A stretch of 32,000 nucleotides of DNA from Micromonospora sp. 067-2 (lineage in GTDB: Bacteria > Actinomycetota > Actinomycetes > Mycobacteriales > Micromonosporaceae). The stretch spans positions 135,495-167,494 of the forward strand of contig NZ_JAJPWB010000014.1 in assembly GCF_046549295.1 (NCBI RefSeq). The letters run 5' to 3'. Below, piece after piece: positions 3,609 through 17,090 of this stretch (its first letter is position 1; every line of letters begins with the position of its first letter). Made by a program: the position numbers and the translations under genes. The notes beneath the pieces were generated by a model. The model was not told the origin of the DNA and made no database searches. It worked only from the letters and a program-made list of their open reading frames with translations.

Positions 3609-4090
3609 AGTCGCCCCTCCCGCCGACCTTGCCGCGTCGCCATCTGCAGCGGTTTGTTGACCGCCGTCGTCCGGGTGGTGGATGGAGAGTCAGGGTGCAA
3701 CACCTCGCCGGTTTCCAGGAGCTGCTTCGTCTCGCGCAGCGCGGCGCGGATCGCCTGGTGGGGATCGCGACCCGCGAGTCGCCTGGCTCCCGCTGTCACC
3801 GGCGACTGGGCACCGTCGCGCAGCCGTACCGCCAGCTCGATGCCGCGGTCAGCCGCGGCGCGGCGGATCTGCACCTCCACGGCGTCACCGAGACCGGCCA
3901 GTGGCTCGGGAAGTGGCGAGTCCGGGGCCAGCTCGTCGTGGAGAGGGTTCACCGTCACCACGTGCCACCGCGGTTCGCGCCGCATCAGCGGGGTCCGCTG
4001 CCAGCCCCGTTGACGGCCCGACGGAAGCAGGAACCTGCGCACGGCCCACCCCCCGACCACGACGACCCCCGTCTTGACCAACGCCCTCAT
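3605..4090 (-). CDS. Conserved actinobacterial hypothetical protein with an N-terminal membrane anchor (possibly SRPBCC-like)
   Basis: ORF 3605..4165 (-). The likely start is the ATG at 4090 (MRALVKTGVVVVGGWAVRRF, a hydrophobic helix). The stretch WHVVTVNPLHDELAPDSPLPEPLAGLGDAVEVQI...LRETKQLLETGEVL resembles a family I recall next to dehydrogenases in actinomycetes. Its TGA (3605-3607) overlaps the GTG start (3606-3608) of the downstream ADH, giving a GTGA junction. Confidence 0.6.
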   Translation of the reverse strand: MRALVKTGVVVVGGWAVRRFLLPSGRQRGWQRTPLMRREPRWHVVTVNPLHDELAPDSPLPEPLAGLGDAVEVQIRRAAADRGIELAVRLRDGAQSPVTAGARRLAGRDPHQAIRAALRETKQLLETGEVLHPDSPSTTRTTAVNKPLQMATRQGRREGRL

Positions 4091-4245
4091 ATGTGCCTCC
4101 GGGTCGACCGCGCCCATCGCCGCATCTGCCTGACCGGCGACTCCGTCATGGACAAACCGTCTCATATCCGTTCAGTGTCACGCTGACGATTCCCGCACCC
4201 GGCGAGGGGCGGTGGTGCGGGCGCGACACCACGTGGGTGAAGGAC

Positions 4246-4514
4246 TCACCGCTCGATGATCAGCCGAGCCACGAACAAGCCAATCCACCGACCGCGGGGC
4301 TCCTCGTAGTCGCCGCCGTGGATGGCCCCTGCCCTGGGCGCGGGACCATCGGCGGGGCGGCCCGGCGTCCCGTACCCGAGATGGCGCGGGTCCGGATGAC
4401 CTCCGTGGCTTCTGCGGCCACCTCGCCCGCGACCGCCGCCGTCGCCCGGGGCCGTCGACCGGCGGTAGCGGCGGCCTCCAACGCGGTGAGCAGGACCGCG
4501 GGCCGCTCGAGCAA
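4246..4514 (-). pseudogene. Small unidentified gene that appears to switch reading frame midway
   Basis: G/C at third codon positions is about 90% in the frame of ORF 4260..4514 over roughly 4370-4514 (LLERPAVLLTALEAAATAG...EVAAEATEVIRTRA). It is equally high in the frame of ORF 4246..4539 over 4246-4330 (AIHGGDYEEPRGRWIGLFVARLIIER*). No family recognised. Confidence 0.25.
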
Positions 4515-4596
4515 CGCCTGTCTCCCTCAGGTAACCCACGCTACGGAGGCGGTCCCAGACAGGTGCCGCCTCCGCGCGTCATGCGGACAACCCTGG

Positions 4597-5754
4597 TCAG
4601 CGCCCGCCGTCGGGGTGCAGCAGCACCTTGGTCCAGCCGTCGTTGCGGGCATCGAAGTTGCGGTACCCCTCCGGTGCCTGATCCAGCGTGAGTTCGTGCG
4701 ACACCAGGAAAGAAGGCTCGGCCTTGTGGTTCGCGATGAGGTTCATCAGCTGCCGGTTGTAGTTTTTCACGTTGCACTGACCGGTGCCCATGCTCTGTCC
4801 CTTGAACCAGAACATGCCGAAGTCGAACGGCGCCTTGCCCTGTTTCTGCAGCGGGTCCGGCGACCCGGGGTCCGTCGGCATGTACACGCCGACCACGCCG
4901 ATCGTGCCGCCGAACCGCACCGAGTGCACGAGGTTGTTCAACGTCAGCGCCGACTTCTCCTGGCCCTGCGGGTCATGCGCCTGGTAACCGACGGCCTCGC
5001 AGCCGCGGTCCGCGCCCCTCCCGCCGGTCTGCTCCAGGATCTGGTCAACCGGCGACCCCTTGGAATCGTCGATTGGGATGGCGCCGATCCGCTCCGCCAG
5101 GCGCAGCCGGTCCGGGTGCCGGTCGACCACCATCACCATGTTGGCGCCCTTGATGATCGCGGAGTACGCGGCCAGCAACCCGACCGGTCCGGCACCATAA
5201 ACTGCCACGCTGTCGCCGGGTCGGACGCAGGCGAGCTCGGTCGCGTGCCAGCCGGTGGGGAAGATGTCCGAGAGCATGACGTAGTCCTTCTGCCGGCTCA
5301 TGTCCCGGACGTCGGGCGGCAGGACCAGGCAGTTGAAGTCGGCCCACGGCACCCGCAGCAGCTTAGCCTGACCGCCCGCGTAAGGACCCATGTCGGCATA
5401 CCCGTAGGCCGCGCCGGCCATACCGGGCGCCGGGTTGGCCACCAGACAGAACGCCGTCAGACCCTGATTGCAGTTCGCGCAGGACCCGCACGAGACGTTG
5501 AACGGCATGCACACCATGTCGCCGACCTTGACCAGGTGGACCCCTTCGCCGACCTCGATGACCTCACCCATGTTCTCGTGCCCGAGCACCGAGCCCGGCT
5601 GCAGATCCGTGCGCCCGTCGTACATGTGCAGGTCAGACCCGCAAATGTTCGTCGTCGTGATCCGTACCAAGGCGTCCGTCGGTCGCTCGATCCTGGCGTC
5701 CGGCACCTCCTTGACGCTGACCGTCCGTGGCCCGTCGTACACGACCGCTTTCAT
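4597..5754 (-). CDS. Glutathione-independent formaldehyde dehydrogenase-like Zn-dependent dehydrogenase (MDR family)
   Basis: Intact 385-aa ORF with GHENMGEVIEVG, CGSCANCNQGLTAFC, Rossmann VAVYGAGPVG and the tail FDARNDGWTKVLLHP typical of this subgroup. It is a paralogue of the broken gene at 2435-3608. Confidence 0.9.
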   Translation of the reverse strand: MKAVVYDGPRTVSVKEVPDARIERPTDALVRITTTNICGSDLHMYDGRTDLQPGSVLGHENMGEVIEVGEGVHLVKVGDMVCMPFNVSCGSCANCNQGLTAFCLVANPAPGMAGAAYGYADMGPYAGGQAKLLRVPWADFNCLVLPPDVRDMSRQKDYVMLSDIFPTGWHATELACVRPGDSVAVYGAGPVGLLAAYSAIIKGANMVMVVDRHPDRLRLAERIGAIPIDDSKGSPVDQILEQTGGRGADRGCEAVGYQAHDPQGQEKSALTLNNLVHSVRFGGTIGVVGVYMPTDPGSPDPLQKQGKAPFDFGMFWFKGQSMGTGQCNVKNYNRQLMNLIANHKAEPSFLVSHELTLDQAPEGYRNFDARNDGWTKVLLHPDGGR

Positions 5755-6152
5755 TCAGTACCCCCCGCGTGAAGATTCCCGCCCCCCTACTGCGGCTCCG
5801 GGGCCGCCGGCAGTCTTATTCTCGCAACTCCGCTCTTCCCCCCACCTCCTGATTCGCGCTATTGGCTGGGTGGAGAAGAAGCCGGTCATCGCTGAACGCT
5901 CTGGTGTCTTCGCCACCGACGGCCCCTACCAACGAGGTGTTCCTTGTCGACACGCATGACGCGCGAAGGCCAGGTACGCGAGCGCCACCGGATCGACGCC
6001 GATTCTGGCTCCCGCTGAGCGGCCCGCAGGCTGGCCGACCACACCCCACTGACCACCACCGTCAGCCCCAGCCTCCGCGCTGTCCTCCGCAGGATCGCCG
6101 AGCGGATGGCGCCGACCTAGACCGGCGCCATCCGCCGAGGGGGTCGGTGGCG

Positions 6153-6995
6153 CTACAACATTTCCAGCGGTTGCGGGCCGGCCGGCGGCGGGAACGCCGT
6201 GTCGAGTGCCGCTACGTCCTCCTCGCTCAGGTGCAGGTCGCGCGCTTCGGCGTTCTCCCGGGTGTGGTCGGACTTGGACGATCGAGGGATGGCGGCAACC
6301 CTCTCCTGCCGCAGCAGCCAGGCCAGCGCCACTTGAGCGGGCGTGGCCCCGTGCCGGGCGGCGACCTCCGCGACCTGGGGGTGGCCGAGCAGTCGGCCCT
6401 GCTCGATGGGCGAGTAGGCCATCACCGGGATTCGGTGCTCGCGTAGCCACGGCAGCAGTTCGTACTCGGGACCGCGGCGGGTGAGGTTGTACAGGATCTG
6501 ATTGGTCGCGCAGGAGTTCCCGCCCGCCTCGAGCAGCTCCGTCATGTCGGAAAGATCGAAGTTGCTCACGCCCCACTGCCCGATGTCACCGGCGTCGACG
6601 AGTTCGGCGAACGCCTCGATCGTCTCCGCGAGCGGATGAGTGCCTCGCCAGTGCAGGAGATAGAGGTCGATGTGGTCGACGCCGAGTCGTTGCAAGCTGC
6701 GGCGACAGGCCTGCACGGTTCCCCGTCGGCTGGCGTTGGACGGCACCACCTTGTCGACCAGAAAGACGTCGGTGCGTCGTCCGGCGATCGCCTCGCCGAC
6801 GAATTCCTCGGAAGCGCCGTCACCGTACATCTCCGCAGTGTCGATCATGGTCATGCCCAGGTCGAGCCCGGTGCGTACGGCGGTGTTCTCGTCTTGTCGC
6901 CTCGCGGGGTTCTCGCCCAGGTACCAGGTTCCCTGGCCGAGCACGGGCATGGTCTGGCCGGACGGCAGTTCGATCGCGGCGGCAGCGAGGGCCAT
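6153..6995 (-). CDS. Aldo/keto reductase
   Basis: MPVLGQGTWYLGE, IDTAEMYGDG, HIDLYLLHW, GVSNF and IPRSSKSDHTREN are classic AKR blocks. The ATG at 6995 (MALAAAAIELPSG) is preferred, because the 36 codons upstream in the track ORF look non-coding. Confidence 0.9.
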   Translation of the reverse strand: MALAAAAIELPSGQTMPVLGQGTWYLGENPARRQDENTAVRTGLDLGMTMIDTAEMYGDGASEEFVGEAIAGRRTDVFLVDKVVPSNASRRGTVQACRRSLQRLGVDHIDLYLLHWRGTHPLAETIEAFAELVDAGDIGQWGVSNFDLSDMTELLEAGGNSCATNQILYNLTRRGPEYELLPWLREHRIPVMAYSPIEQGRLLGHPQVAEVAARHGATPAQVALAWLLRQERVAAIPRSSKSDHTRENAEARDLHLSEEDVAALDTAFPPPAGPQPLEML

Positions 6996-7572
6996 GTGGC
7001 GACCTTTCCGGAGCCTGTGGTGTCTATAGGTTGCCTGCGTTACCCACCACGACAGGCAGTACACCCCCTCTGAGCGCGACCTCTTCTCCGCGACGGCCCT
7101 CACCGTGTAGCGAGCACCTGGCGGATTGTCCGCTCTCGAGCGGCCTTCGCCGGCCCCTTCGCCGATCCCGGCACCGCGAGGGTGACCGCGAGTAAGCGAC
7201 GCACCCCTGACCGGGCGGCGCGGCGAAACGGCACGTCACGTCCCGGTTCTTTCGCCGTCGAACGGCTTCGGACGCTGCCCGGGTCAGGGCCCACGCCGGG
7301 ACCGGTGTGGCTGATTGGCTGGTCAACGTGCCGGCGGTGCTGGTCATCCTGCTCCCGCTTGCGTTCTGTACGGGCTGTTCCGCAACGGCTCCTCCGACTT
7401 GCGGCGCAGCTGCCACATCGCTGATTCCGGCCACTTGCCCCGGATCGGGGTGGCGGGCAGGCCTGGGTGCTGACACTGAGAGGCGAGCGCGATGACAGTG
7501 GTCGGAGAGGTCACGACGACCGTAGGTCGCTGAGTGGACGGCGACTTGCCCTGCTACACGTGAGGAGCACCG

Positions 7573-8712
7573 ATGACCCGCAGCGAGCGGCACCGGCCGG
7601 AGATCGTCGTCGGACTGGTGGCGACCCCGCCGGATTACCCGGCCCGGGTGGCCGCGCGGCTCACCGCCGAGCTGGCCGGCCGGCTTGCCGATCGGGTGGA
7701 CGCCGACGTGCGGTGGACCGTCCGGGAAGGCTGGGGTGAGGTGGCGCCGCGCCGCGACGGCGGCGTTGAGGCGCTGCTCGATGATCTTGCCCAACGGCGC
7801 GCCGGCGACCGGTGGGACGTCGCAATCTGCCTTACCGACCTGCCGCTGCACACCGAGCGGGCGCCGCTGGTCGCGCAGAGCTCAGCCCGTCGCCGAGTCG
7901 CGGTGGTGTCTCTGCCCGCGCTGGGACTTGGGCAGTTGCGAGCGGCCCGCGTGGCCGTCCCGGATCTGGTGAGCCGACTGCTCACCGACGCTTCCGACCA
8001 GCGGGTGGCGCCGGCCGGCTGGGCACCGGGCGAGATGGCGAGCCGGATTACCGCCATCCACCGTGTGGTTGGCGAGGCCGATGCCGGGGAACTGCGCTAC
8101 GTCGACTCGCGGCTGACCGGCCGGGTGCGGCTGTTGACCGGAATGGTCAAGGCCAACCGCCCGGGGCGTGCTCTGCTGGGCCTGTCCAAGCTGCTGGTCG
8201 GCGCGTTCGGCACGGCCGCGTTCGCGCTCACCACGAGCACCGTCTGGCAGATGGGCGAAGCGCTCGGCGGACTCCGGCTCGCCGTGATCATGATACTCGG
8301 GCTGGCTGCGTTGGTGGCTTGGCTGATCATCGCCCACGACCTGTGGGAGGAACCAGGCCGCGAGACACCGCCTGAGCTGGCCCGGATGTTCAACCTGGGT
8401 ACGATCCTCACCCTCACCCTGGCTACCGCGGTGTCCTACCTGGTTCTGTTCGCCGGAACGGTTCTCGCCGCGGCGCTGCTGATTGACACATCCGTGCTGG
8501 AACAGACCCTGCAGCGCCCAGTCGGTATCACCGACTACCTGACGCTCGCCTGGATCACCAGCTCGCTAGCCACCGTCGGCGGCGCGATCGGCTCCGGGCT
8601 GGAGAACGAGGAAAAGGTACGGGCCGCCGCCTACGGCTACCATCCCGAACCCGGCGGCTGGCGGGACGAGAGCGACGGAATCTCCGTCGGTGAGGACAGG
8701 ACCTCCGGTTGA
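7573..8712 (+). CDS. Conserved hypothetical membrane protein: ~190-aa soluble N-terminal domain plus 4 predicted TM helices
   Basis: 379-aa ORF with strong G/C third-position bias. The N-terminal domain reads EIVVGLVATPP...DVAICLTDLPLHTERAPLVA...VAVVSLPALG. The C-terminal helices are LLVGAFGTAAFALTTSTVW, LAVIMILGLAALVAWLIIA, LGTILTLTLATAVSYLVLFAGTVLAAALLI and LTLAWITSSLATVGGAIG. No family with a known function recognised. Confidence 0.75.
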   Translation: MTRSERHRPEIVVGLVATPPDYPARVAARLTAELAGRLADRVDADVRWTVREGWGEVAPRRDGGVEALLDDLAQRRAGDRWDVAICLTDLPLHTERAPLVAQSSARRRVAVVSLPALGLGQLRAARVAVPDLVSRLLTDASDQRVAPAGWAPGEMASRITAIHRVVGEADAGELRYVDSRLTGRVRLLTGMVKANRPGRALLGLSKLLVGAFGTAAFALTTSTVWQMGEALGGLRLAVIMILGLAALVAWLIIAHDLWEEPGRETPPELARMFNLGTILTLTLATAVSYLVLFAGTVLAAALLIDTSVLEQTLQRPVGITDYLTLAWITSSLATVGGAIGSGLENEEKVRAAAYGYHPEPGGWRDESDGISVGEDRTSG

Positions 8713-9011
8713 ACTTGATCAGGAGATTTGGATCGGAATGTGAAGGTATGCCGTCCGGCCGGCGCATGGTGACGTGTTCAGGCGCGAGCAGCGGCGTTCG
8801 AGGCAGCGGTGCCGGCAGCACGTGTAGCTGATGCTGCCCGCCCGAACTGTTGCGGCGGGGGCAGCGGCGGTTGGGTTCGCGGCGATCGTGGCCGCTCGGT
8901 GGCTGCTTTGACGTCGGGGAATTGTCACGGACGTACGGCTAACCAACCGACCTCAGTGGGAATAGCCGCGCCCGGTATCACGGAGGTGCTCCGTCGGGCA
9001 TTCTGTGCCAC

Positions 9012-9266
9012 ATGCTCCTGGTTCTGGCCCAGCCGCCCGTGTCCTTGGATCCTGGCTGGACACAGTGGGTTCCTGCGGCGTCGGCAGCCGTGGCACTGCT
9101 CGCGTTGCTGGTCGCACTGACCAACCGCAACGTATCCCAGCGGGCCCTGGCGATATCGATGCAGCAAGAGGATCGCCGTACGGCCCGACTGAACGTCACT
9201 CTTGCCGACTCGGCGTCGTGGCGTGGGTCGGCGGCGGACGGGATGGCGCTAGGAGTCGGAGAGTAA
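9012..9266 (+). CDS. Small single-pass membrane protein, possibly truncated at the island boundary
   Basis: 84-aa ORF with about 75% G/C at third positions and one hydrophobic helix (AASAAVALLALLVAL). Its last 18 nt overlap the convergent low-GC ORF, so its stop lies exactly where GC content drops. Confidence 0.35.
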   Translation: MLLVLAQPPVSLDPGWTQWVPAASAAVALLALLVALTNRNVSQRALAISMQQEDRRTARLNVTLADSASWRGSAADGMALGVGE

Positions 9267-9674
9267 GTCCCGGAAGGGACCGATTCCCCAGGCACGCGCA
9301 ATTGGTAGCAGAAAGTTTGGCACGTGATCGTAGTCCTTCTCGACAACTGGCCAAAAGACGATATTGCCTTCTGCGTCCCATTCGAATATCGATTGCAGTT
9401 GCTTCGTTCGGCCATCCTTAGTCATGCCGGTAACGGCGATCGCCTCCTTGCGGTCTGGGCGATCTCTGGCTGGCACGATTGCTCGATTCCGAAGATCCTC
9501 GCCAGGCTTGGCGAATGCAACCCACTGCTCTCCCGCAAAAATGAACCCGTTCGCTCCCGCTATGCGGATCTCGTTCGCCAGTCGCTGGAACGCGAGTCGT
9601 TTGGCGTCCTGATCGGAGAATGCAATCGGCAGGTGTGCGACTATGCGGTCATTAATCCAAAAGGTAAGCGAAGG
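9249..9674 (-). pseudogene. Distal segment (~139-141 codons) of the low-GC orphan gene, lacking its own start
   Basis: The track ORF 9249..9476 begins at a GTG, but the same frame stays open upstream to a TGA at 9675-9677 with no ATG/GTG/TTG in between. That upstream stretch reads as protein-like sequence (LTFWINDRIVAHLPIAFSDQDAKRLAFQRLANEIRIAGANGFIFAGEQWVAFAKPGEDL). It is best read as a continuation of 9652..10563 after a frameshift. Confidence 0.55.
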
Positions 9675-10563
9675 TCAGGTGGGATTTATCGACTTTCAAC
9701 ACGTGTTGAGCGGTCTTCAGTAGGTTGGGCAGGCGATCTATCGCGTCACCCGTTCCAACGTCAAATTCTCCTCCGTATTTCTCGAAGGCCATTCGGGTCA
9801 ATTCAGCTGAGTCCCCATCGAAGTCCACACGTGACTCGCGAATTGTTTGTCCCGTTTGCAAATCTACATGTAGTAGACGGTTGTCGTCGGCAGAGTCCAT
9901 GCAGGTCAATGAACTGTGGATGTCGGAGGTCACGCACGCTGTCTGCCGAGCGGGCAGGTTGCAGGCTTCGACTCCCGCCTCTTGGTGGGCCGTATAGATG
10001 ATTTGGCCGATCCGGTCATAGGCGTACGAGGTTGCCTCCAGCAACTCCCACTCTGGCAAAGCGCGGTCGATCCAACGCCGGTTGATTGTGATTGTGCCTG
10101 TTGGCGGTATGGTGTTCGCGACGAGTATGCCCGCGAGGATTTGTCTTGTAGGAAAGCGAGGGGGAAACTGAAGAGTTTTTTCGAATTCATGTGTCCAGTC
10201 GAGTGAGATGCGGACCTTTGCTTCACTGTGGATCTCTAGGTCCGCTTCCTTGACGATCCGATTGCGGGATTTGACAATCCACTTCATCACGGAGTCGTCT
10301 TTTGCGGAATCCTGCCATGCCCCATACCAATGTCGAAAATTGGTAAAGTCGCCTTTCCTCTTTTGAAGGAGCCAGGTGATGTTGCGCAGGTTCTGTATCA
10401 GTGCATTAAGGTTCAGGCGGAACCCATCAGGGCTCATATACGAATCTGCGGTCATGTGCCAGTGTGCATGGCAATCCATGAACCGCCGATGCGCGTCTCT
10501 GATGGGGCAGGGGAGCCGTTGGTCGTCCCCAACTTTCGGCTCGCCTATAGGACCCTCGTGCAT
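9652..10563 (-). CDS. Low-GC orphan protein (303 aa as it now stands), function unknown
   Basis: This is the part of track ORF 9652..11070 (-) downstream of the ATG at 10563 (MHEGPIGEPK). The upstream 169 codons overlap the IS transposase in another frame and are Pro/Ser/Ala shadow sequence. The body is Lys/Asn/Ile/Trp-rich and about 50% GC, unlike every neighbour. No recognisable domain. Confidence 0.7.
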   Translation of the reverse strand: MHEGPIGEPKVGDDQRLPCPIRDAHRRFMDCHAHWHMTADSYMSPDGFRLNLNALIQNLRNITWLLQKRKGDFTNFRHWYGAWQDSAKDDSVMKWIVKSRNRIVKEADLEIHSEAKVRISLDWTHEFEKTLQFPPRFPTRQILAGILVANTIPPTGTITINRRWIDRALPEWELLEATSYAYDRIGQIIYTAHQEAGVEACNLPARQTACVTSDIHSSLTCMDSADDNRLLHVDLQTGQTIRESRVDFDGDSAELTRMAFEKYGGEFDVGTGDAIDRLPNLLKTAQHVLKVDKSHLTFAYLLD

Positions 10564-10687
10564 CGACAAATCATACGTCCACCCGGACTCGCTTAGCAGT
10601 CCCAGGTCCGGGAGGATTGGATTCGGGGCTGGCAGCGACGGCCCCGGCAAGGCTTCCGTCCTGAGAGCGTGTTTGAGATGGGGCTGG

Positions 10688-11368
10688 TCAGGTCCAGGTG
10701 AAGGTGCGGCGGGCTTGGCGTCGGGCGGGTCGACCGCGGGTGATGCGGCGTGCCATGCCGGCGATGGCGGCCCAGCGGATGATGGCTTCGGAGGTCTCGG
10801 GGTGGCGTTCGTAGTCGCGGGCCAGTCGGCGGCATGCGGTGAGCCAGGCCAGAGTGCGTTCGACGACCCAGCGGCGGGGATGCACGGCGAAGCCGCGCTG
10901 GTCGGGGGGCTTGCGGACGATCTCGAGGGTGGTGCGCAGGATGTCGCGGGTCCAGTCGACGAGTCGTCCGGTGAAGCCCTGGTCGGCGAAGACGTGTCGG
11001 ATCGGGGCGGCCATGTAGGCGCCCAGCAGAGCGGTCTTGGCGCCGTCGCGGTCCTGCCAGCTTGCGGCAAGGACGGTCACGGTGACCAGCAGGCCCAAGG
11101 TGTCGGTGACGATGAACCGCTTGCGGCCGTTGACCTTCTTCCCGTCGTCGTAGCCCCGGCTGTCTCGGCCGACGGTGTCAGCGCCCTTCACTGACTGGGA
11201 GTCGATGATTCCCGCCGACGGCTGCGGCTCGCGGCCCTGCTGCACCCGAGCCTTGATACGCAGCGCCGCCAGGAGCTTCTCGGTCACACCGGCGTCTTCC
11301 ACCGGGTGAAGTACCAGTACACCGTCTGCCACGGCGGAAGATCTGCCGGCAGAAACCGCCACGGACAC
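10688..11368 (-). CDS. IS5-family transposase, DDE catalytic ORF (orfB), in the -1 frame relative to orfA
   Basis: IIDSQSVKGADTV...GYDDGKKVNGRKRFIVTDTLGLL...VFADQGFTG...VVERTLAWLTACRRLARDYE are the DDE-domain blocks. A -1 slip after the AAG codon of ...TRWK joins orfA to DAGVTEKLLAAL and yields a protein of normal length. Confidence 0.85.
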   Translation of the reverse strand: MSVAVSAGRSSAVADGVLVLHPVEDAGVTEKLLAALRIKARVQQGREPQPSAGIIDSQSVKGADTVGRDSRGYDDGKKVNGRKRFIVTDTLGLLVTVTVLAASWQDRDGAKTALLGAYMAAPIRHVFADQGFTGRLVDWTRDILRTTLEIVRKPPDQRGFAVHPRRWVVERTLAWLTACRRLARDYERHPETSEAIIRWAAIAGMARRITRGRPARRQARRTFTWT

Positions 11369-11529
11369 CCCGCCCGAACCACGTACAGGATCGCGTTGAC
11401 GATCTCCCGCCGCGGGTGCTTCTCCCGCCGCCCGTCCGTGTTCGGCTCCGGCAGCAGCGCCTCGATCAGCGCCCGCTGAGCATCAGTCAGGTCCGAGTGA
11501 TAACCATGACGAGCAGACACCCGAGCCAC
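11284..11529 (-). CDS. IS5-family transposase, N-terminal ORF (orfA)
   Basis: GYHSDLTDAQRALIEALLP...AILYVVRAGCPWRFLPADLPPWQTVYWYFTRWK is the canonical N-terminal DNA-binding region of IS5/IS427-type transposases. Confidence 0.85.
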   Translation of the reverse strand: MARVSARHGYHSDLTDAQRALIEALLPEPNTDGRREKHPRREIVNAILYVVRAGCPWRFLPADLPPWQTVYWYFTRWKTPV

Positions 11530-11917
11530 CCTGCCCGCTGAAGACCCTCGGCGTCACGCCAACACACCGTCCACAACAGACCTTCTCAAACACGCTTTAA
11601 GGTTCCTGGCGTGGTGGCGCCCTGCGGGCGCCCGGCTTCCCAGAGCAGGAGGTCCGGGTGCGGGCACGGGAGGGGGCCGGGCGGGTCTTCCCGCCTCCGG
11701 AGTCTTACGGCAACAGCGTCTGGGGCGCCGGAGCTCACGTCACGCCGCCGGTGGCGTCCGATGCCATCGACGACATGCGGATCGTGCCACCCGTCTTCAT
11801 GCCACGTCGACTCGAGGAGATTCGTCGGCGGTTCGGCGTTCGGTGACGCTGGTGCGGTTCGGCTCGCCTCTGCTGGCCGTGAGTGATTGACAGGTGACGT
11901 GAATGTGATCCTCATGT

Positions 11918-13792
11918 TTGACTATGGACATGGCGGCGGGGGAAGCGCGGTTGTCGATCGACTGCGGCAGCGCCGGCACCCAAGCCGTCCTGGCGTGCGC
12001 CGACGGCAGCGCACACGTGCTGACATTCGACGGGAATCCACCCCTACACCGCACGCCGCATATGCCCGCCAACGGACAAGCGACGGGGCAACCCGCAGCG
12101 TTCATTCCGGGGCCGCGCCAGCCGGTGGAGGACGCGACAACAGGTGACGCTCGCGGCGACGCGCTGGAGGTGGCGGCGTCGCCGCTGCGCAGGGTCGCCG
12201 CCGAAGCCGAGCGGGTCGTCGGTCAGCCGGTGCGCGATGTGCGGGTGGTAGTCCCTGCGGGGTGGGGGCCTCGGCGGCGGACCTGGATGCGGCAGGTCGC
12301 GCACCGGGCGGGGTTGCCGCAACCGCGTCTGGTGGAGGCCCCGGTGGCGGTCGCCGAGTATCTGCTCACCACTGGTGTGCGGGTGCCGGTCGGTGCGTTC
12401 CTTGTTGTTTGTGACGTCGGCGCGGGCGCGGAGGTGACGGTGCTGCGCCGCGGGCCGGCCGGGTTCGAGGTCCTCGCGACCCTCGCCGACGCCGCGGCTG
12501 GCGGCACGGCAGTCGATCACGCGCTCGCCGACGCCCTCATCGGCGCGTCGACGGGAGAGGGTCAGCGCGCGTCGGTGGCGGACAGCGTTCGGGTGGCCAA
12601 GGAAGCGTTGGTGAGCCATCCGGCTGTCACGGTGCCGCTCCCGGACCGGCCGCCGGTGATTGCGAACAGCGCGATGCTCGACGAGGCCGTCCGGCCGGTG
12701 GCGTGGCGCGTGGCGCAGTTGACGCAGGAAACCGTCGCCGCCGCCGAGCTCACGGTCGGCGACCTCGCCGGTATCTACTGTGTGGGCGGCAGCGCCCAGC
12801 TACCGCACCTAGCGGCGGCGATCGCCGAGCACACAGGCGCCGCACCCGTCGTCGTGCCCGAGCCGGGGCTGGTCGCGGCCCGGGGCGCCGCTGACGTCGG
12901 CGCCGTCGATATCGCGACGGTCGAGCGGGTGGAGGTGCCGGTGCCGCCCGTGCGGCGGGCGGCGGCGATCGCGGTCCCAGGCTTCGCGTCGCTGGCCCTG
13001 ATCTGGCAGTGCCTCCTGACCGCGGAGCGGCACGGGACGCTCGGTGTGTACTACTCGGTGAGTGTGAACTGGGGCGAGTTCACGATGGCGGCGGTGATGG
13101 CCCTGCTGGCGTGCCTGGCCGCGGGCACGGTCCTCGGCTCGCTGATCGCCGCCCGCAGTCCCACCCCCGGCACCCGAACCGAAGGGGGAAGGGTCAGCGT
13201 CGGGATCCTCGCCGCGGTGTCCCTCGGCGCGGCGATCGCTGGCCTGTACGCGGTGGTCACCAGCCAATACTTCGGTGTGCCCGTCGGCCCGTACCTGAAG
13301 TGGGCGCTGTGGCCGATCGCGCCGGTGTCGGTGATGGCCGTGGCGATGGCGGTCGTCGCCGCTCGGCAGTGGCGTGCCCCGCACGGCGGCTGGTCGGCGT
13401 TGCTGGCCGCGCCGACCGGATCCATCGTCGCCGCCACGCTCGGCATGGGGTTGATCCAGTACTCTCTGACCGCCGACCGGTGGCCGGATCGGATCCTGTG
13501 GATCGACATCGCCGGCCGCGTCGGCGGTCTCCTCCTCGGCGTCGCCGTGGTCATGGCAGTGGTGACGCCCCTGATGTTCCGCCTCATCCTCGCCGCCCCG
13601 CTGGCGGTGATCTTCGCGGCGATCGTCAGTAGACGGGCCGCCGGCATGCTCGGCGTCATCTACGCCGTCGCCGTCGCGACTTGGTGGGCTACTCGGCTCT
13701 GGAGCCGTGTCCTGCGCCCCGCCCCACCCGCCCGCACCGCACTGGCCACGGGCCGGGTTCGGGCGGACATGTCACCGGGTGAAGGCGCGTGA
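11918..13792 (+). CDS. Hsp70/actin-fold ATPase domain fused to a C-terminal polytopic membrane domain
   Basis: All five Hsp70-type nucleotide-binding motifs are recognisable in order: LSIDCGSAGTQAV (phosphate 1), VVVPAGWGPRRRTWMRQVAHRAGL, LVEAPVAVAEYL (like NEPTAAALAY), LVVCDVGAGAEVTVL (phosphate 2) and IYCVGGSAQLPHLAAAIAEHTGAAPVVVPEPGLVAARGAA (adenosine motif). From about aa 350 there are ~8 hydrophobic helices and no Hsp70 substrate-binding domain. The start could be the TTG at 11918 or the ATG at 11924 or 11930. Confidence 0.85.
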   Translation: MTMDMAAGEARLSIDCGSAGTQAVLACADGSAHVLTFDGNPPLHRTPHMPANGQATGQPAAFIPGPRQPVEDATTGDARGDALEVAASPLRRVAAEAERVVGQPVRDVRVVVPAGWGPRRRTWMRQVAHRAGLPQPRLVEAPVAVAEYLLTTGVRVPVGAFLVVCDVGAGAEVTVLRRGPAGFEVLATLADAAAGGTAVDHALADALIGASTGEGQRASVADSVRVAKEALVSHPAVTVPLPDRPPVIANSAMLDEAVRPVAWRVAQLTQETVAAAELTVGDLAGIYCVGGSAQLPHLAAAIAEHTGAAPVVVPEPGLVAARGAADVGAVDIATVERVEVPVPPVRRAAAIAVPGFASLALIWQCLLTAERHGTLGVYYSVSVNWGEFTMAAVMALLACLAAGTVLGSLIAARSPTPGTRTEGGRVSVGILAAVSLGAAIAGLYAVVTSQYFGVPVGPYLKWALWPIAPVSVMAVAMAVVAARQWRAPHGGWSALLAAPTGSIVAATLGMGLIQYSLTADRWPDRILWIDIAGRVGGLLLGVAVVMAVVTPLMFRLILAAPLAVIFAAIVSRRAAGMLGVIYAVAVATWWATRLWSRVLRPAPPARTALATGRVRADMSPGEGA

Positions 13793-13793
13793 C

Positions 13794-15893
13794 ATGCGGT
13801 GGCCGCGGCAGCTGATGTCGCTGCTGTTCGTCCTCGCGCTTCTGGTCGGCCCTCCAATAGTGCTGCTGTCACTGGTCGGAGCACCGATACAAGGTTGGCC
13901 GACCGCCGCGCAGGCAGAGGAGTGGGTGCAGAACCCGCTGACCGAACAGACCCTCACCGCCGCGCTGACCATCGCGGCGTGGCTGGTGTGGCTCCTGCTC
14001 GCCTACACGGTCACGATCCGGGTGCTGGCACGCCTGAGCGCGACCGTGTCGTGGCTGCGGCGCATGCCGCTGCCGACGCCCTGGCAAGCCACCGCCGGTG
14101 GCATCGCCGGCGCGGCCGTGTTCGGCGTCAGCTCCCACGCGATCGCCGCACCGCCACCGCCGCCCACGCAGCCGGTAGCGGCAGGAACCCTCTATGAGGC
14201 CGGCAACCTGACGCCATCAGACGGCGACGTCCTAGCCGACGCGGGGATCAGCGTCGCCGGTGGCTGGCTGCCGCGCGACGTGGCGGAGCAGGTCAGCGCG
14301 GCGGCGGCGCTGGTGTGGCTGCGTCGCCGTCGCTCCTACCGGCCCCGCCCGCCCGGTCCGCCGAGCCGCGAGGACTCGGACCTGGCGCCGTTGCCCCCGA
14401 CGGTGGCGGCCGTGCAAGCTGCCCTCGCCAATTCGACGCCACCGCCTACCGAACCCGGCGCCGCCTCGGCGGGCTCGTCGCTGCTCGACCGGCCAACCGT
14501 CGCCGGGGCTTTCCCCCGAGCTGGGGTCGGTCTCACCGGGCTGGGGGCGCAGGACGCGGCGCGAGGCCTGCTCGTCACCAGCCTCCTAGCTGGGCGTCAT
14601 CACCCGGCAGTGTCCGTGGTCGTCACCCGACCTGTCCTGGCCGGGTTGCTCGGCCCCACCGCCGAAACGCTGGGCCCACGCCTACCGAGGCTGGCCGTCA
14701 TCGACAACCTCAGACAGGCAGCGGAGTTCTTTTCCAGAGACCACCCTGGTCGTGGCCTGGGCAGACGAGACCAGGCACACCGTGACACACAGGAGGGCAC
14801 CGGCCAACCCGGACCAACCCTCATCGTCGACGAGGCGTCCGCGACGGACAACGCCGACACCCTGGCGACTCTGGCCATCACCTCCGCCGCGGTGGCCGTG
14901 CTTGGACGGTGGCCGGCCGCCGAAACATGGCAGATCGACCCGTCGGGGCGCACCCACCACCAGGACGGCAGCGGGTTAGCCGGGCTACGGATGTGTGTCC
15001 TTAGCCAGATCACGGCCATTGACCTGCTCACCGTCATCGCCCACCCCGACACGGCGCCGCCAGAGCCTGGTACCTCCGGCCCGTCGCGCAACCCCGCCCT
15101 GGCAGGCCGGACCCCACAGTGGGAGGCCACTGCCCAGGACCACCCCGTCCGCTCAGGCAACGACAAACGACGCGTTCAGCTACGCGTGCTGGGCGAAGCG
15201 ACACTGCTGCTGGACGGCCACCCGGTGGAGATCCGGCGTACCGCCGCGCTCCAAGTCCTCGTGTTCCTCGCCGCCCACCCCGACGGAGCCGACACCCGAC
15301 AGCTGACCCACGCCATCTGGCCGGGCCTGCCCCGCCGCTCTCTCACCGGCCGCCTCTACACCACCCTCAGCGACCTCCGCGCCACCATCCGGTCCACGGC
15401 CGGGGTGACCATCATCGAGCACAGCGACGACCGGTACCGCCTCGACCCCACCGCCGTCACCGTCGACCTGTGGCACTTCCACCACGCGGTCCGCGACGCC
15501 ACCACCACCGTCGCCACCCACGCGACGGCCTGGAAGGCCGTCATCGATGCCTACCCCGGTGACCTCGCCGCCCGACGGACCTGGCCCTGGCTCGACCCGG
15601 TCCGCGAGGCCACCCGCCGGCACGTCATCGACGCACACGCGGCTCTCGCCAGCGCCAGCCCTGACGCCCGTGAGGCCCTGGCATGGCTGCAGGCCGGCAT
15701 CCGCATCGACCCGTACAACGCCGACCTGCACACCCGCGCGGCCAGCGCACTCATCACCCTCGGCGACCACGACGCGGCCGACCACATACGGGAGGGCTAC
15801 ACCCGACGCCTCGCCGCAGCGGGCATACGCCCCACCGACACGGCCGACGGAACAGCCACCCTCAGAGACCAGCCCGGCATCCCCACCCGGTAA
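13794..15893 (+). CDS. Membrane-anchored SARP-type regulator: N-terminal TM helices, Pro/Ala-rich linker, central domain, C-terminal OmpR-like winged helix plus BTAD
   Basis: The ATG at 13794 lies 1 nt after the upstream TGA (13790-13792). The N-terminus has hydrophobic helices LMSLLFVLALLVGPPIVLLSLVG and LTAALTIAAWLVWLLLAYTVTI. The C-terminus reads VQLRVLGEATLLLDGHPVEIRRTAALQVLVFLAAHPDGADTRQLTHAIWP...RYRLDPTAVTVDLWHF (SARP DNA-binding domain). This is followed by AYPGDLAA...WLDPVRE...AWLQAGIRIDPYNADLH (BTAD/TPR-like). Confidence 0.85.
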   Translation: MRWPRQLMSLLFVLALLVGPPIVLLSLVGAPIQGWPTAAQAEEWVQNPLTEQTLTAALTIAAWLVWLLLAYTVTIRVLARLSATVSWLRRMPLPTPWQATAGGIAGAAVFGVSSHAIAAPPPPPTQPVAAGTLYEAGNLTPSDGDVLADAGISVAGGWLPRDVAEQVSAAAALVWLRRRRSYRPRPPGPPSREDSDLAPLPPTVAAVQAALANSTPPPTEPGAASAGSSLLDRPTVAGAFPRAGVGLTGLGAQDAARGLLVTSLLAGRHHPAVSVVVTRPVLAGLLGPTAETLGPRLPRLAVIDNLRQAAEFFSRDHPGRGLGRRDQAHRDTQEGTGQPGPTLIVDEASATDNADTLATLAITSAAVAVLGRWPAAETWQIDPSGRTHHQDGSGLAGLRMCVLSQITAIDLLTVIAHPDTAPPEPGTSGPSRNPALAGRTPQWEATAQDHPVRSGNDKRRVQLRVLGEATLLLDGHPVEIRRTAALQVLVFLAAHPDGADTRQLTHAIWPGLPRRSLTGRLYTTLSDLRATIRSTAGVTIIEHSDDRYRLDPTAVTVDLWHFHHAVRDATTTVATHATAWKAVIDAYPGDLAARRTWPWLDPVREATRRHVIDAHAALASASPDAREALAWLQAGIRIDPYNADLHTRAASALITLGDHDAADHIREGYTRRLAAAGIRPTDTADGTATLRDQPGIPTR

Positions 15894-16395: not shown

Positions 16396-16463
16396 GCGAT
16401 CCCGATGATGTGCACGATGCTGACCGTGGTCGCGGTGATCCGTGACGGGGCATCCGCGGGGGC

Positions 16464-16673
16464 GTGCACACTCTCGCCGGACTGGTGCGCAGCCTGCCCT
16501 GCTACCTCGCCTTCTGCGTCACGGTCGCGCTCACCGCCGCCGTCGCAGGCACCACGTGCGTCGGACTCGGCCTGCTGGCCTGCCTTGCGGCGGCCTCCCT
16601 CACCTGGAAACGCGTGCCGGTCGCCCGGACCTCGGCGCTCGACTCTGGCCAGGTGCTGGAAACGGCGGCCTGA
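16464..16673 (+). pseudogene. Fragment of a membrane sensor-domain protein (possible stub of another histidine kinase N-terminus)
   Basis: 69-codon ORF with about 88% G/C at third positions and two hydrophobic helices (LPCYLAFCVTVALTAAVAG, CVGLGLLACLAAASL). It resembles the 'putative sensor' N-terminal modules of actinobacterial kinases. It is far too short to be a complete gene. Confidence 0.3.
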
Positions 16674-16818
16674 TCTCGTCCGGACGCCTGAAGAAGGTCG
16701 TTGCTGCGCTGGCTGCGCGCTCGAGGCAGCGGATGGCTTCTTTGTGGGTCTGGCCTGCGGCCCGTTTCCGCTGGTAGTCCTGTCCCGGGGTCGCTCTTTT
16801 GATCTGGGCGATGGCCAT
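16600..16818 (-). mobile_element. IS110-family transposase, C-terminal remnant
   Basis: PGQDYQRKRAAGQTHKEAIRCLER matches the conserved C-terminal YYxRKRAEGKxHxxAxxxLAR block of IS110-type transposases. Nothing corresponding to the N-terminal catalytic domain is present. Confidence 0.5.
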
Positions 16819-16828
16819 GACGTGCAGC

Positions 16829-17077
16829 GCGCTTGATCTCCTTGAGTACCTCCCGGCCGTCGCGGAGCGGCTAAACCAGGTCGAGCAGGATCAGATCGGG
16901 ACTCGCCGCGTCGGTGTACAGACCCTCGCGCCGCAGGTAGGCCAGCGCCTCGGCGCCGTCGGAAACGACGCGCAGGCGGTTGCCCAGCCTGTGTTCGGCG
17001 AATGCCTCCTGGGTCATCAACACGTCACGGGCATCGTCCTCGACCAGCAGAACCTCGATCGGGTTATCCCCGTGCAC
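16829..17077 (-). pseudogene. Response-regulator receiver domain: in-frame TAG, then truncated
   Basis: [20 protein letters not shown]...[13 protein letters not shown]...[22 protein letters not shown]. The stop codon (16868-16870) sits where the conserved Leu of LLDLNLPxxDG belongs. Homology ends near 16829, where the IS110 remnant begins. Confidence 0.75.
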
Positions 17078-17090
17078 TGCACCGCAATGG

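Follow-up and report, generated by a model that had tools for sequence, protein, structure and literature searches.

Introduction

Among the genes of phage lambda, ea47 (J02459 22686-23918, complement) has, to our knowledge, gone 50 years without a function; the Ea proteins of lambda are early lytic (pL) products. In this work, we analysed a stretch of 32,000 nucleotides of Micromonospora sp. 067-2 (contig NZ_JAJPWB010000014.1; hereafter, the window), in which a minus-strand gene of low guanine-plus-cytosine (GC) content, at positions 9249-10563, is almost certainly a copy of the same family, catalogued as PF26900 and as PHROG 19262. Two more described systems are compared with it here: the HEPN proteins of the abortive infection (Abi) type, such as AbiV, AbiJ and AbiD/F, in which the HEPN motif sits at the start of helix 4, and the Septu-like pair PtuA/PtuB (PDC-M01), which lambda Ea59 and Ea31 resemble. 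The low-GC stretch had been picked out in an earlier note, made from the letters of the sequence.

Relation to the lambda Ea47 family

The reading frame of the gene is interrupted by a frameshift, and its repair in silico gives a product of 437 amino acids (aa). By hhalign, the family alignment matched lambda Ea47 with a probability of 99.9% (E 1.9e-32; 382 aligned columns, 24% identity), over residues 25-427 of the repaired protein and residues 7-402 of Ea47. In addition, tblastn of the repaired protein hit lambda ea47 directly (E 3e-14, 83% query coverage), and PHROG 19262, a family of 410 positions, matched residues 25-186 (E 3e-20). A large protein search yielded 52 homologues, all of them intact and 316-462 aa long, whose sources are Micromonospora, Actinomadura, Kitasatospora, Streptomyces, Nocardioides, Motilibacter, Gryllotalpicola and metagenomes; PF26900, named "Phage_lambda_Ea47", is precomputed on all 52, among them a relative 89% identical to the repaired protein, and also on the 97% identical relative from Micromonospora sp. 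WMMD710. The repaired protein itself had no match in the Pfam, NCBIfam and PADLOC libraries that we used, in the case of Pfam because PF26900 post-dates that version and not because the gene is an orphan.

Homology with lambda Ea47 extends over the full length (410 aa in lambda, 437 aa in 067-2), and the two share the motifs FRLNLN..Q..R.VT...QK.K, WY, SRN.I.K..DLE, RRWV, ELL, F.DQ..K, E.W and E....G. Both genes are low in GC relative to their carrier, and each is carried as cargo close to an integrase or attachment site, among defence-type neighbours. They differ in that the actinobacterial clade has an extra N-terminal segment, C-P...H..L.DCH..WH, and conserves three cysteines, C201, C210 and C221, that are absent from lambda. 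The carrier in 067-2 is also another one, a chromosomal island or integrative element of a high-GC actinomycete and not a lambdoid phage. The repaired protein holds all of the family-invariant residues R60, T63, Q67, W79, W95, R100, D108, S113, R162, E173, H193, E345, W347 and E373; instead of an intact single open reading frame (ORF) of about 380-450 aa, the 067-2 copy has a frameshifted one, split into 303 + 136 aa.

The family is large. An exhaustive HMMER search of 1.84 billion cluster representatives (50% identity) returned 3,044 proteins at E <= 1e-3, 764 of them at E <= 1e-30, and the genome loci span Actinomycetota, Alpha- and Deltaproteobacteria, Nitrospirales, Planctomycetota, Chloroflexota, Patescibacteria and others. 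The earlier note had taken the gene for an orphan of no known family and for something undescribed; neither view survives the full-length homology with Ea47, the PHROG match and the PF26900 assignments of the homologues, in a catalogued family of about 3,000 clusters at 50% identity. That no domain can be recognised is correct for the Pfam, NCBIfam and PADLOC libraries used and wrong in general. The repair and the profile searches that the note had proposed were carried out, and they lead to a family that is itself uncharacterised, so membership supplies no mechanism for the 067-2 gene. The gene adds a new member, a frameshifted one, to a family that is known though uncharacterised; it is not a new kind of gene.

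A low-GC cassette in a decaying island

Across about 9250-10600, the GC content of 200-nt windows drops from 0.65-0.74 to 0.50-0.60. The gene span as a whole is at 54.6% (0.546), against a mean of 68.7% (sd 2.3, minimum 64.1) in the remaining 1.3-kb windows of the 32 kb (z = -6.1), and no second stretch anywhere in the window shows a comparable dip. The drop that the earlier note described is therefore real, down to its exact count of 29 G/C in 9301-9360, and a sliding-window analysis such as it had suggested finds the region compositionally distinct. The edges also lie where they had been placed: on the right at the left inverted repeat of an insertion sequence (IS), at 10660 and thus 97 bp upstream of the ATG at 10563, and on the left in the stop region of a small convergent ORF, since the stop codon of the Ea47-family gene (9249-9251) falls within an 18-nt overlap with the end of the plus-strand ORF 9012-9266. 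In between there is, as proposed, a single minus-strand coding unit that needs frameshift repair. Its 5' fragment, annotated by NCBI as hypothetical protein WP_410814926.1, aligns with residues 1-302 of intact homologues and its 3' part with residues 303-437. The coordinates of these and the other features are collected in Table 1.

Low GC is nevertheless not special to this locus, because it is a trait of the family. In 31 of 44 Ea47-family loci the gene lies more than 5 points under its flanks; over the loci the difference averages -9.5 points and goes as far as -23 points, and lambda ea47 stands at 31% GC where the surrounding region has a mean of 44%. The shift could stem from frequent transfer, from a low-GC origin or from selection, for instance xenogeneic silencing.

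In blastn comparisons, positions 9221-10625 are 97.5% identical to WMMD710 over 1405 nt, and positions 9223-10605 are 89.6% identical to M. zamorensis over 1383 nt. This similarity is confined to the gene and 25-60 nt on each side. The unit that travels is a self-contained low-GC cassette of 1.4 kb, and its description in the earlier note as a compositionally foreign, IS-adjacent, single-gene insert stands. Within the conserved 42-62 nt upstream, a TATGAT hexamer at 10575-10570, 6 nt ahead of the ATG, may be the -10 box of a leaderless transcript; a consensus promoter scan found no promoter on the minus strand of the cassette.

To the left of the cassette, positions 8971-9223 are 86.6% identical to positions 16835-17087 of the WMMD710 locus, where the 186-aa gene of which 067-2 retains a 5' remnant is intact (16423-16983). 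Against that locus, the 067-2 window is collinear and lacks two segments, one on each side of the cassette: one of 3.3 kb with a 65-aa ORF and an AbiJ_NTD3 gene, and one of 5.5 kb with an IS and three ORFs. With these two missing segments, a truncated neighbour and an IS 97 bp upstream, the 067-2 copy lies in a decaying island.

State of the 067-2 copy

A single extra G interrupts the gene (Table 1), and it is the sole indel in the coding sequence both against M. zamorensis, whose homologue shows 89% protein identity, and against WMMD710, whose intact allele (WP_278124753.1, 437 aa) is 97% identical to the repaired protein. The WMMD710 junction reads FAYLLINDRIVAHL, which matches the repair in silico exactly. 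With M. zamorensis as the reference, the ratio of nonsynonymous to synonymous substitution rates (dN/dS) comes to 0.134 for the gene as a whole, to 0.130 for the part upstream of the frameshift and to 0.143 for the part downstream. As the downstream part has not drifted, the lesion must be very recent, or else an assembly error.

We judge the frameshift to be probably a real mutation, because the change is a compound one, adjoined by a substitution (CTTCTGATT to CTTTTGGATT), and lies outside a homopolymer run, and because the surrounding island decays independently, through the IS, the truncated neighbour gene and the missing segments. The extra G and the decay around it make a very recent pseudogene the most likely state of the copy. 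The opposite view, that the frameshift is not biological, is unlikely: it would require an assembly or sequencing error, or a full-length protein made by +1 ribosomal slippage at CUU-UUG-G. It draws on the equally low dN/dS on both sides of the shift, where no second lesion is found, and on the resemblance of CUU_U followed by the rare codon UUG to known +1 slippery sites; against it stand the compound nature of the change, the independent decay of the island and the about 190 homologues inspected, none of which requires a frameshift. UUG is rare in high-GC actinomycetes, and the known +1 slippery sites that the stretch resembles are those of prfB and Ty1. A +1 slip at 9652-9668 (-) would give ...FAYL-W-INDR.... 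Programmed +1 frameshifting was considered and judged unlikely, there being no homologue that needs it, and the resemblance to a slippery site is probably a coincidence because no homologue has the frameshift.

Protein architecture and the HEPN question

An AlphaFold2 model built on a 50-sequence alignment reached a predicted local distance difference test score (pLDDT) of 89.5 and a predicted template modelling score (pTM) of 0.83. The helical N-terminus read from the sequence in the earlier note is borne out by four predicted helices (residues 22-40, 45-68, 76-88 and 91-106), beyond which the model has a mixed beta/alpha middle and an alpha/beta C-terminal part. Among 164 full-length members, residues R60, T63, Q67, W79, Y80, W95, R100, D108, S113, R162, W164, E173, H193, C221, D292, E345, W347 and E373 are conserved in at least 90%, and of these D108, S113, R162, E173, H193, D292, E345 and E373 fall to the mixed alpha/beta remainder. 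So many invariant charged residues suggest that the protein is an enzyme.

The N-terminal part, of about 115 residues, also occurs alone, in proteins of 100-310 aa from Alphaproteobacteria, Chloroflexota, haloarchaea and others, with further relatives in Nitrososphaeraceae. R60, T63, Q67, W79 and R100 are invariant in these proteins too, and all of them are assigned to PF26900. A subfamily of about 270 aa in Alphaproteobacteria carries the motif LNAFLSAxRSVTFVLQK...RNxSQKEG, and archaeal forms carry R-x4-H; examples of such short proteins lie at 9905-10720, 1506-2084 and 9866-10459 of their own loci. An N-terminal extension common to three homologues had no relative in the PDB.

Fusions were found with C-terminal SEC-C and TPR domains, including the TPR-S "sensor" family, with an N-terminal DUF5677 and with an N-terminal HNH-like domain, the last a weak assignment (Pfam E 2e-4, Cas9-HNH E 0.013). 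DUF5677 was discarded as a lead to defence, given that it is enriched near serine recombinases and is not among the ORFs that protect against phage (PMC12632615).

The earlier note had seen a layout reminiscent of HEPN/Abi modules, and at the same time had observed that the canonical Rx4-6H motif is absent, which is correct: RNRIVK, at residues 100-105, has Lys in place of the HEPN His. Among 168 members, the residue five positions after R100 is K in 154, H in 13 and R in 1. One could then think of the protein as an RNase toxin with a divergent HEPN N-domain, whose R-x4-K/H would cleave RNA during abortive infection. The four-helix unit of the model, the invariant R100, the canonical HEPN spacing (R[NT]xxxH) of the H-bearing members, the R-x4-H forms among the stand-alone N-domain proteins and an AbiV-like HEPN gene directly adjoining the Ea47-family gene in two integrative elements would all fit this reading. 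HEPN Abi proteins are, moreover, single-gene cargo of mobile elements, with a helical N-terminal module, an invariant Arg and a basic residue or His five positions on, and the Ea47 family co-occurs with AbiJ- and AbiV-like genes.

The direct comparisons speak against it. HEPN-clan Pfam families had no match at E <= 1-10 in the window protein, five homologues and ten N-domain-only proteins, and Foldseek against the PDB returned no HEPN structure. Within helix 4 (residues 91-106), the Ea47 motif takes up the C-terminal half and not the start; other invariant residues, with R60, T63 and Q67 on helix 2, are not HEPN hallmarks; the large conserved alpha/beta C-terminal part has no HEPN counterpart; and Lys replaces His in most members (R-x4-K in 92%, R-x4-H in 8%). 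The resemblance is therefore not upheld, and a HEPN-type toxin is quite improbable. Kinship between the AbiV-like neighbour and the Ea47 N-domain was likewise rejected, with an hhalign probability of 0.2% for the N-domain profile.

Carriers and neighbours

Ea47-family genes are cargo of prophages, actinomycete integrative elements and plasmids. The plasmid carriers are large plasmids of Streptomyces, Nocardia, Arthrobacter and Acidithiobacillus, and some of the genes lie in islands without integrases. The family is present in only 18 phage records: lambda and its close lambdoid relatives account for 16, and O276, with a match restricted to the N-terminal part, for the remaining two. The gene is patchy among close relatives, and lambda ea47 itself is present in 121 of 5,426 complete E. 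coli genomes. The check for homologues proposed in the earlier note thus finds intact conserved ORFs in integrative elements and beside defence-type genes, and not only decayed fragments.

We looked for a conserved operon partner among 382 neighbour proteins (±5 genes at 44 loci), which fell into 340 clusters, none present in more than four related loci, and the largest of which reflect local synteny among 3-4 related genomes only. The genes are solitary, without a conserved partner gene. Phage_integrase is the Pfam family found most often (6) in the 149 immediate neighbours; GntR, NUDIX, Peptidase_M78/HTH and HicA come next, and PADLOC matches among the neighbours include RmrA, GajA, capP, PDC-S07 and PDC-S35. 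Individual contexts are listed in Table 1, where AICE stands for actinomycete integrative and conjugative element; the WMMA1949 element also has McrBC and ApeA_NTD1 near the Ea47-family gene. The AbiV-like proteins of M. globbae and WMMA1949 are of about 287 aa and encoded on the same strand as the Ea47-family gene (11185-12048 and 11186-12046 (+) of their loci). The two genes together may be a local arrangement; elsewhere it is not conserved.

Such company might also be expected of a gene that serves the replication, integration, transfer or regulation of its carrier and has no part in any conflict, as the family is found regularly inside integrative elements near int, xis, RepSA and Prim-Pol genes. 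We regard this as very improbable, considering that the carriers are of unrelated types (lambda, AICE-like elements, a relaxase-type mobilisable element, large plasmids and islands without integrases), that the gene has no conserved partner or position in them, that it is patchy among close relatives and nonessential in lambda, and that the 067-2 copy moved as a single-gene cassette.

In lambda, ea47 occupies positions 3687-4919 of the b-region stretch that we analysed (J02459 19000-29500), and ea31 (5510-6400) and ea59 (6397-7974), both on the minus strand in the coordinates of the stretch, adjoin it. Ea59 gave full-length PADLOC matches to PtuA and PDC-M01A (E 4e-201 and 5e-184), and Ea31 a full-length match to PDC-M01B (E 6e-113), together with a weak Pfam HNH match. 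By these profile matches the two look like a Septu-type candidate defence pair, and the lambda b region would then be a small defence-type island. Ea47 shares with this pair the neighbourhood and the character of accessory, low-GC, nonessential cargo. It differs in having no ATPase or HNH domain of its own, and in the actinobacterial loci it is unlinked to PtuA/B-like genes, so that it is not a third Septu component.

Possible function

The company of the gene, mobile elements and defence-type neighbours, suggests a role in conflict. Under the mechanism that we propose, the Ea47-family protein would be an enzyme acting in conflicts between mobile elements and phages, through exclusion or abortive-infection-type defence that would benefit the carrier element, and the copy in 067-2 would now be inactivated. 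A conflict-type enzyme is put forward tentatively, with less than even confidence. For the explanation as a whole, that of a broken Ea47-family cargo cassette with an inferred conflict role, we lean slightly towards acceptance. The earlier note had spoken of a horizontally acquired conflict, defence or toxin gene; the gene is foreign, mobile and placed beside defence-type genes, so this is a reasonable reading, while the assignment of a defence or toxin function finds neither a PADLOC match nor an experiment behind it.

Several observations weigh against the proposed role. The suggestion of an enzyme comes from conservation residue by residue. Foldseek of the model against the PDB gave no neighbour (best E 0.36), and searches of PDB sequences gave chance matches, to the Rx coiled-coil for the family profile (E 0.05) and to such proteins as HIV integrase and BST2 for the N-domain profile. 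PADLOC-DB v2 had no match for the repaired protein at E <= 1 or for lambda Ea47 at E <= 1e-3. Defence genes are among the immediate neighbours in a minority of loci, a count that has no genome-wide control, and the frameshift could be an assembly error. Early lytic expression would fit host takeover or anti-defence at least as well as defence expressed from a lysogen. The literature searched gave no phenotype for Ea47, and only locus engineering and use as a cargo site, essentiality and two-hybrid data: lambda ea47 is nonessential and unannotated (PMC10695390), and the reported interactions of Ea47 are with low-confidence two-hybrid partners only (PMC3224144). In the BFVD, Foldseek returned only uncharacterised phage proteins of 150-220 aa that match part of the model.

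The expression of ea47 leads to the main competitor, an anti-defence or establishment factor that would be made early on entry of the phage or element and would neutralise host immunity or remodel the host. Lambda ea47 lies in the b region next to attP/int and is an early pL product; it is dispensable on laboratory hosts (PMC10695390), as anti-defence genes typically are; its occurrence in E. coli is sporadic; and homologues sit at the edges of integrative or mobilisable elements, beside the integrase. With about 430 aa and many invariant charged residues, however, the protein is unlike most small inhibitors, its fusions to TPR/TPR-S sensor-type repeats and HNH follow a plan that is usual for defence proteins, the genes that reside beside it are for defence or toxins and not for further anti-defence functions, and the family is rare in sequenced virulent and temperate phages outside lambda. 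We find an anti-defence role rather unlikely on balance.

Returning to the conflict-type enzyme, a more specific form of it is that the family is an unrecognised single-gene immunity or exclusion enzyme of mobile elements, with a fold that has no solved relative and a putative active site formed by R60/T63/Q67 and R100-x4-K/H. In this form the idea is doubtful. If it were true, one of the last lambda genes without an assignment would gain a role, and the Micromonospora cassette would represent a system of this kind whose inactivation is recent. At the 067-2 locus itself little is at stake, as the gene there is broken, its family is catalogued and the island around it is decaying. The family merits attention for its thousands of intact relatives under purifying selection across many bacterial phyla, in which no structural or profile neighbour was found and which travel alone, AT-shifted, beside integrases and defence genes. 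The intact WMMD710 allele and lambda are two tractable systems in which the choice between defence, exclusion and anti-defence could be made.

Other features of the window

Table 1. Features of the low-GC locus of Micromonospora sp. 067-2 (positions in the window) and gene contexts of homologues in other genomes
Feature	Position	Strand	Remarks
Low-GC single-gene cassette	9221..10625	-	Common to other Micromonospora genomes; flanking DNA differs between genomes (blastn)
Upstream leader of cassette	10564..10625	-	Kept in M. zamorensis and WMMD710
5' ORF fragment of Ea47-family gene, 303 aa	9652..10563	-	ATG 10563, premature TAA 9654-9652
3' gene part, +1 frame, 136 aa	9249..9659	-	Stop TAG 9251-9249
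Frameshift, one extra G	9657..9658	-	067-2 TAC CTT TTG GAT TAA, intact TAC CTT CTG ATT AAT
Predicted N-terminal helical domain, about residues 20-135	10159..10506	-	AlphaFold2 helices and alignment; invariant R60, T63, Q67, W79, R100
R-N-R-I-V-K motif, R100-K105	10249..10266	-	Family-wide R-[NT]-x-x-x-[K/H]
Small convergent ORF, 84 aa (9012-9266)	8971..9266	+	5' remnant of 186-aa gene, cut at cassette junction 9223
IS5-family IS	10660..11602	-	ORFA 11284-11529 (DUF4096), ORFB 10688-11368 (DDE_Tnp_1); Pfam
M. zamorensis context			AbiJ_NTD3, SocA_Panacea, RVT_1, faint Mrr_cat, IS21
Micromonospora sp. WMMD710 context			Upstream: integrase, AbiJ_NTD3, SocA_Panacea; downstream: IS elements
Micromonospora sp. 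WMMD737 context			Present twice, both times next to an integrase, in AICE-like elements (FtsK, Prim-Pol, NUDIX); one copy adjoins Mrr_cat
Kitasatospora viridis context			Between dnaX and integrase of a relaxase/MobC element
S. malaysiensis context			Prim-Pol element, adjoining HTH-Peptidase_M78
M. globbae context			Integrase and xis upstream; AbiV-like HEPN gene 33 bp downstream (26.2 bits; Pfam threshold 27.1)
Micromonospora sp. WMMA1949 context			RepSA, integrase and xis upstream; AbiV-like HEPN gene 33 bp downstream (26.7 bits; Pfam threshold 27.1)

The IS upstream of the cassette is bounded by imperfect inverted repeats of 22 nt (10660-10681 and 11581-11602, 86% complementary), and it sits exactly at the end of collinearity with the WMMD710 island. 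Similarity to WMMD710 enters the inverted repeat by about 11 nt, to 10670 (6639-6649 of the WMMD710 locus), so the true terminus of the IS may be near 10667-10671, a few nt inside the repeat. No clear target-site duplication was identified at the IS. Synteny with the closest core genome, that of M. purpureochromogenes, stops at 8678, downstream of which the region is variable, and a search for an empty site in the closest genomes gave no clean one.

Just to the right of the IS, in the same variable region, there is an unexplained gene pair at 11918-15893 (+). The first gene encodes a protein of 624 aa that combines an Hsp70-like nucleotide-binding domain with a C-terminal half of hydrophobic character, and it overlaps the start of a gene for a 728-aa product, which gave weak TPR/BTAD matches and a weak PADLOC 'TPR' match.

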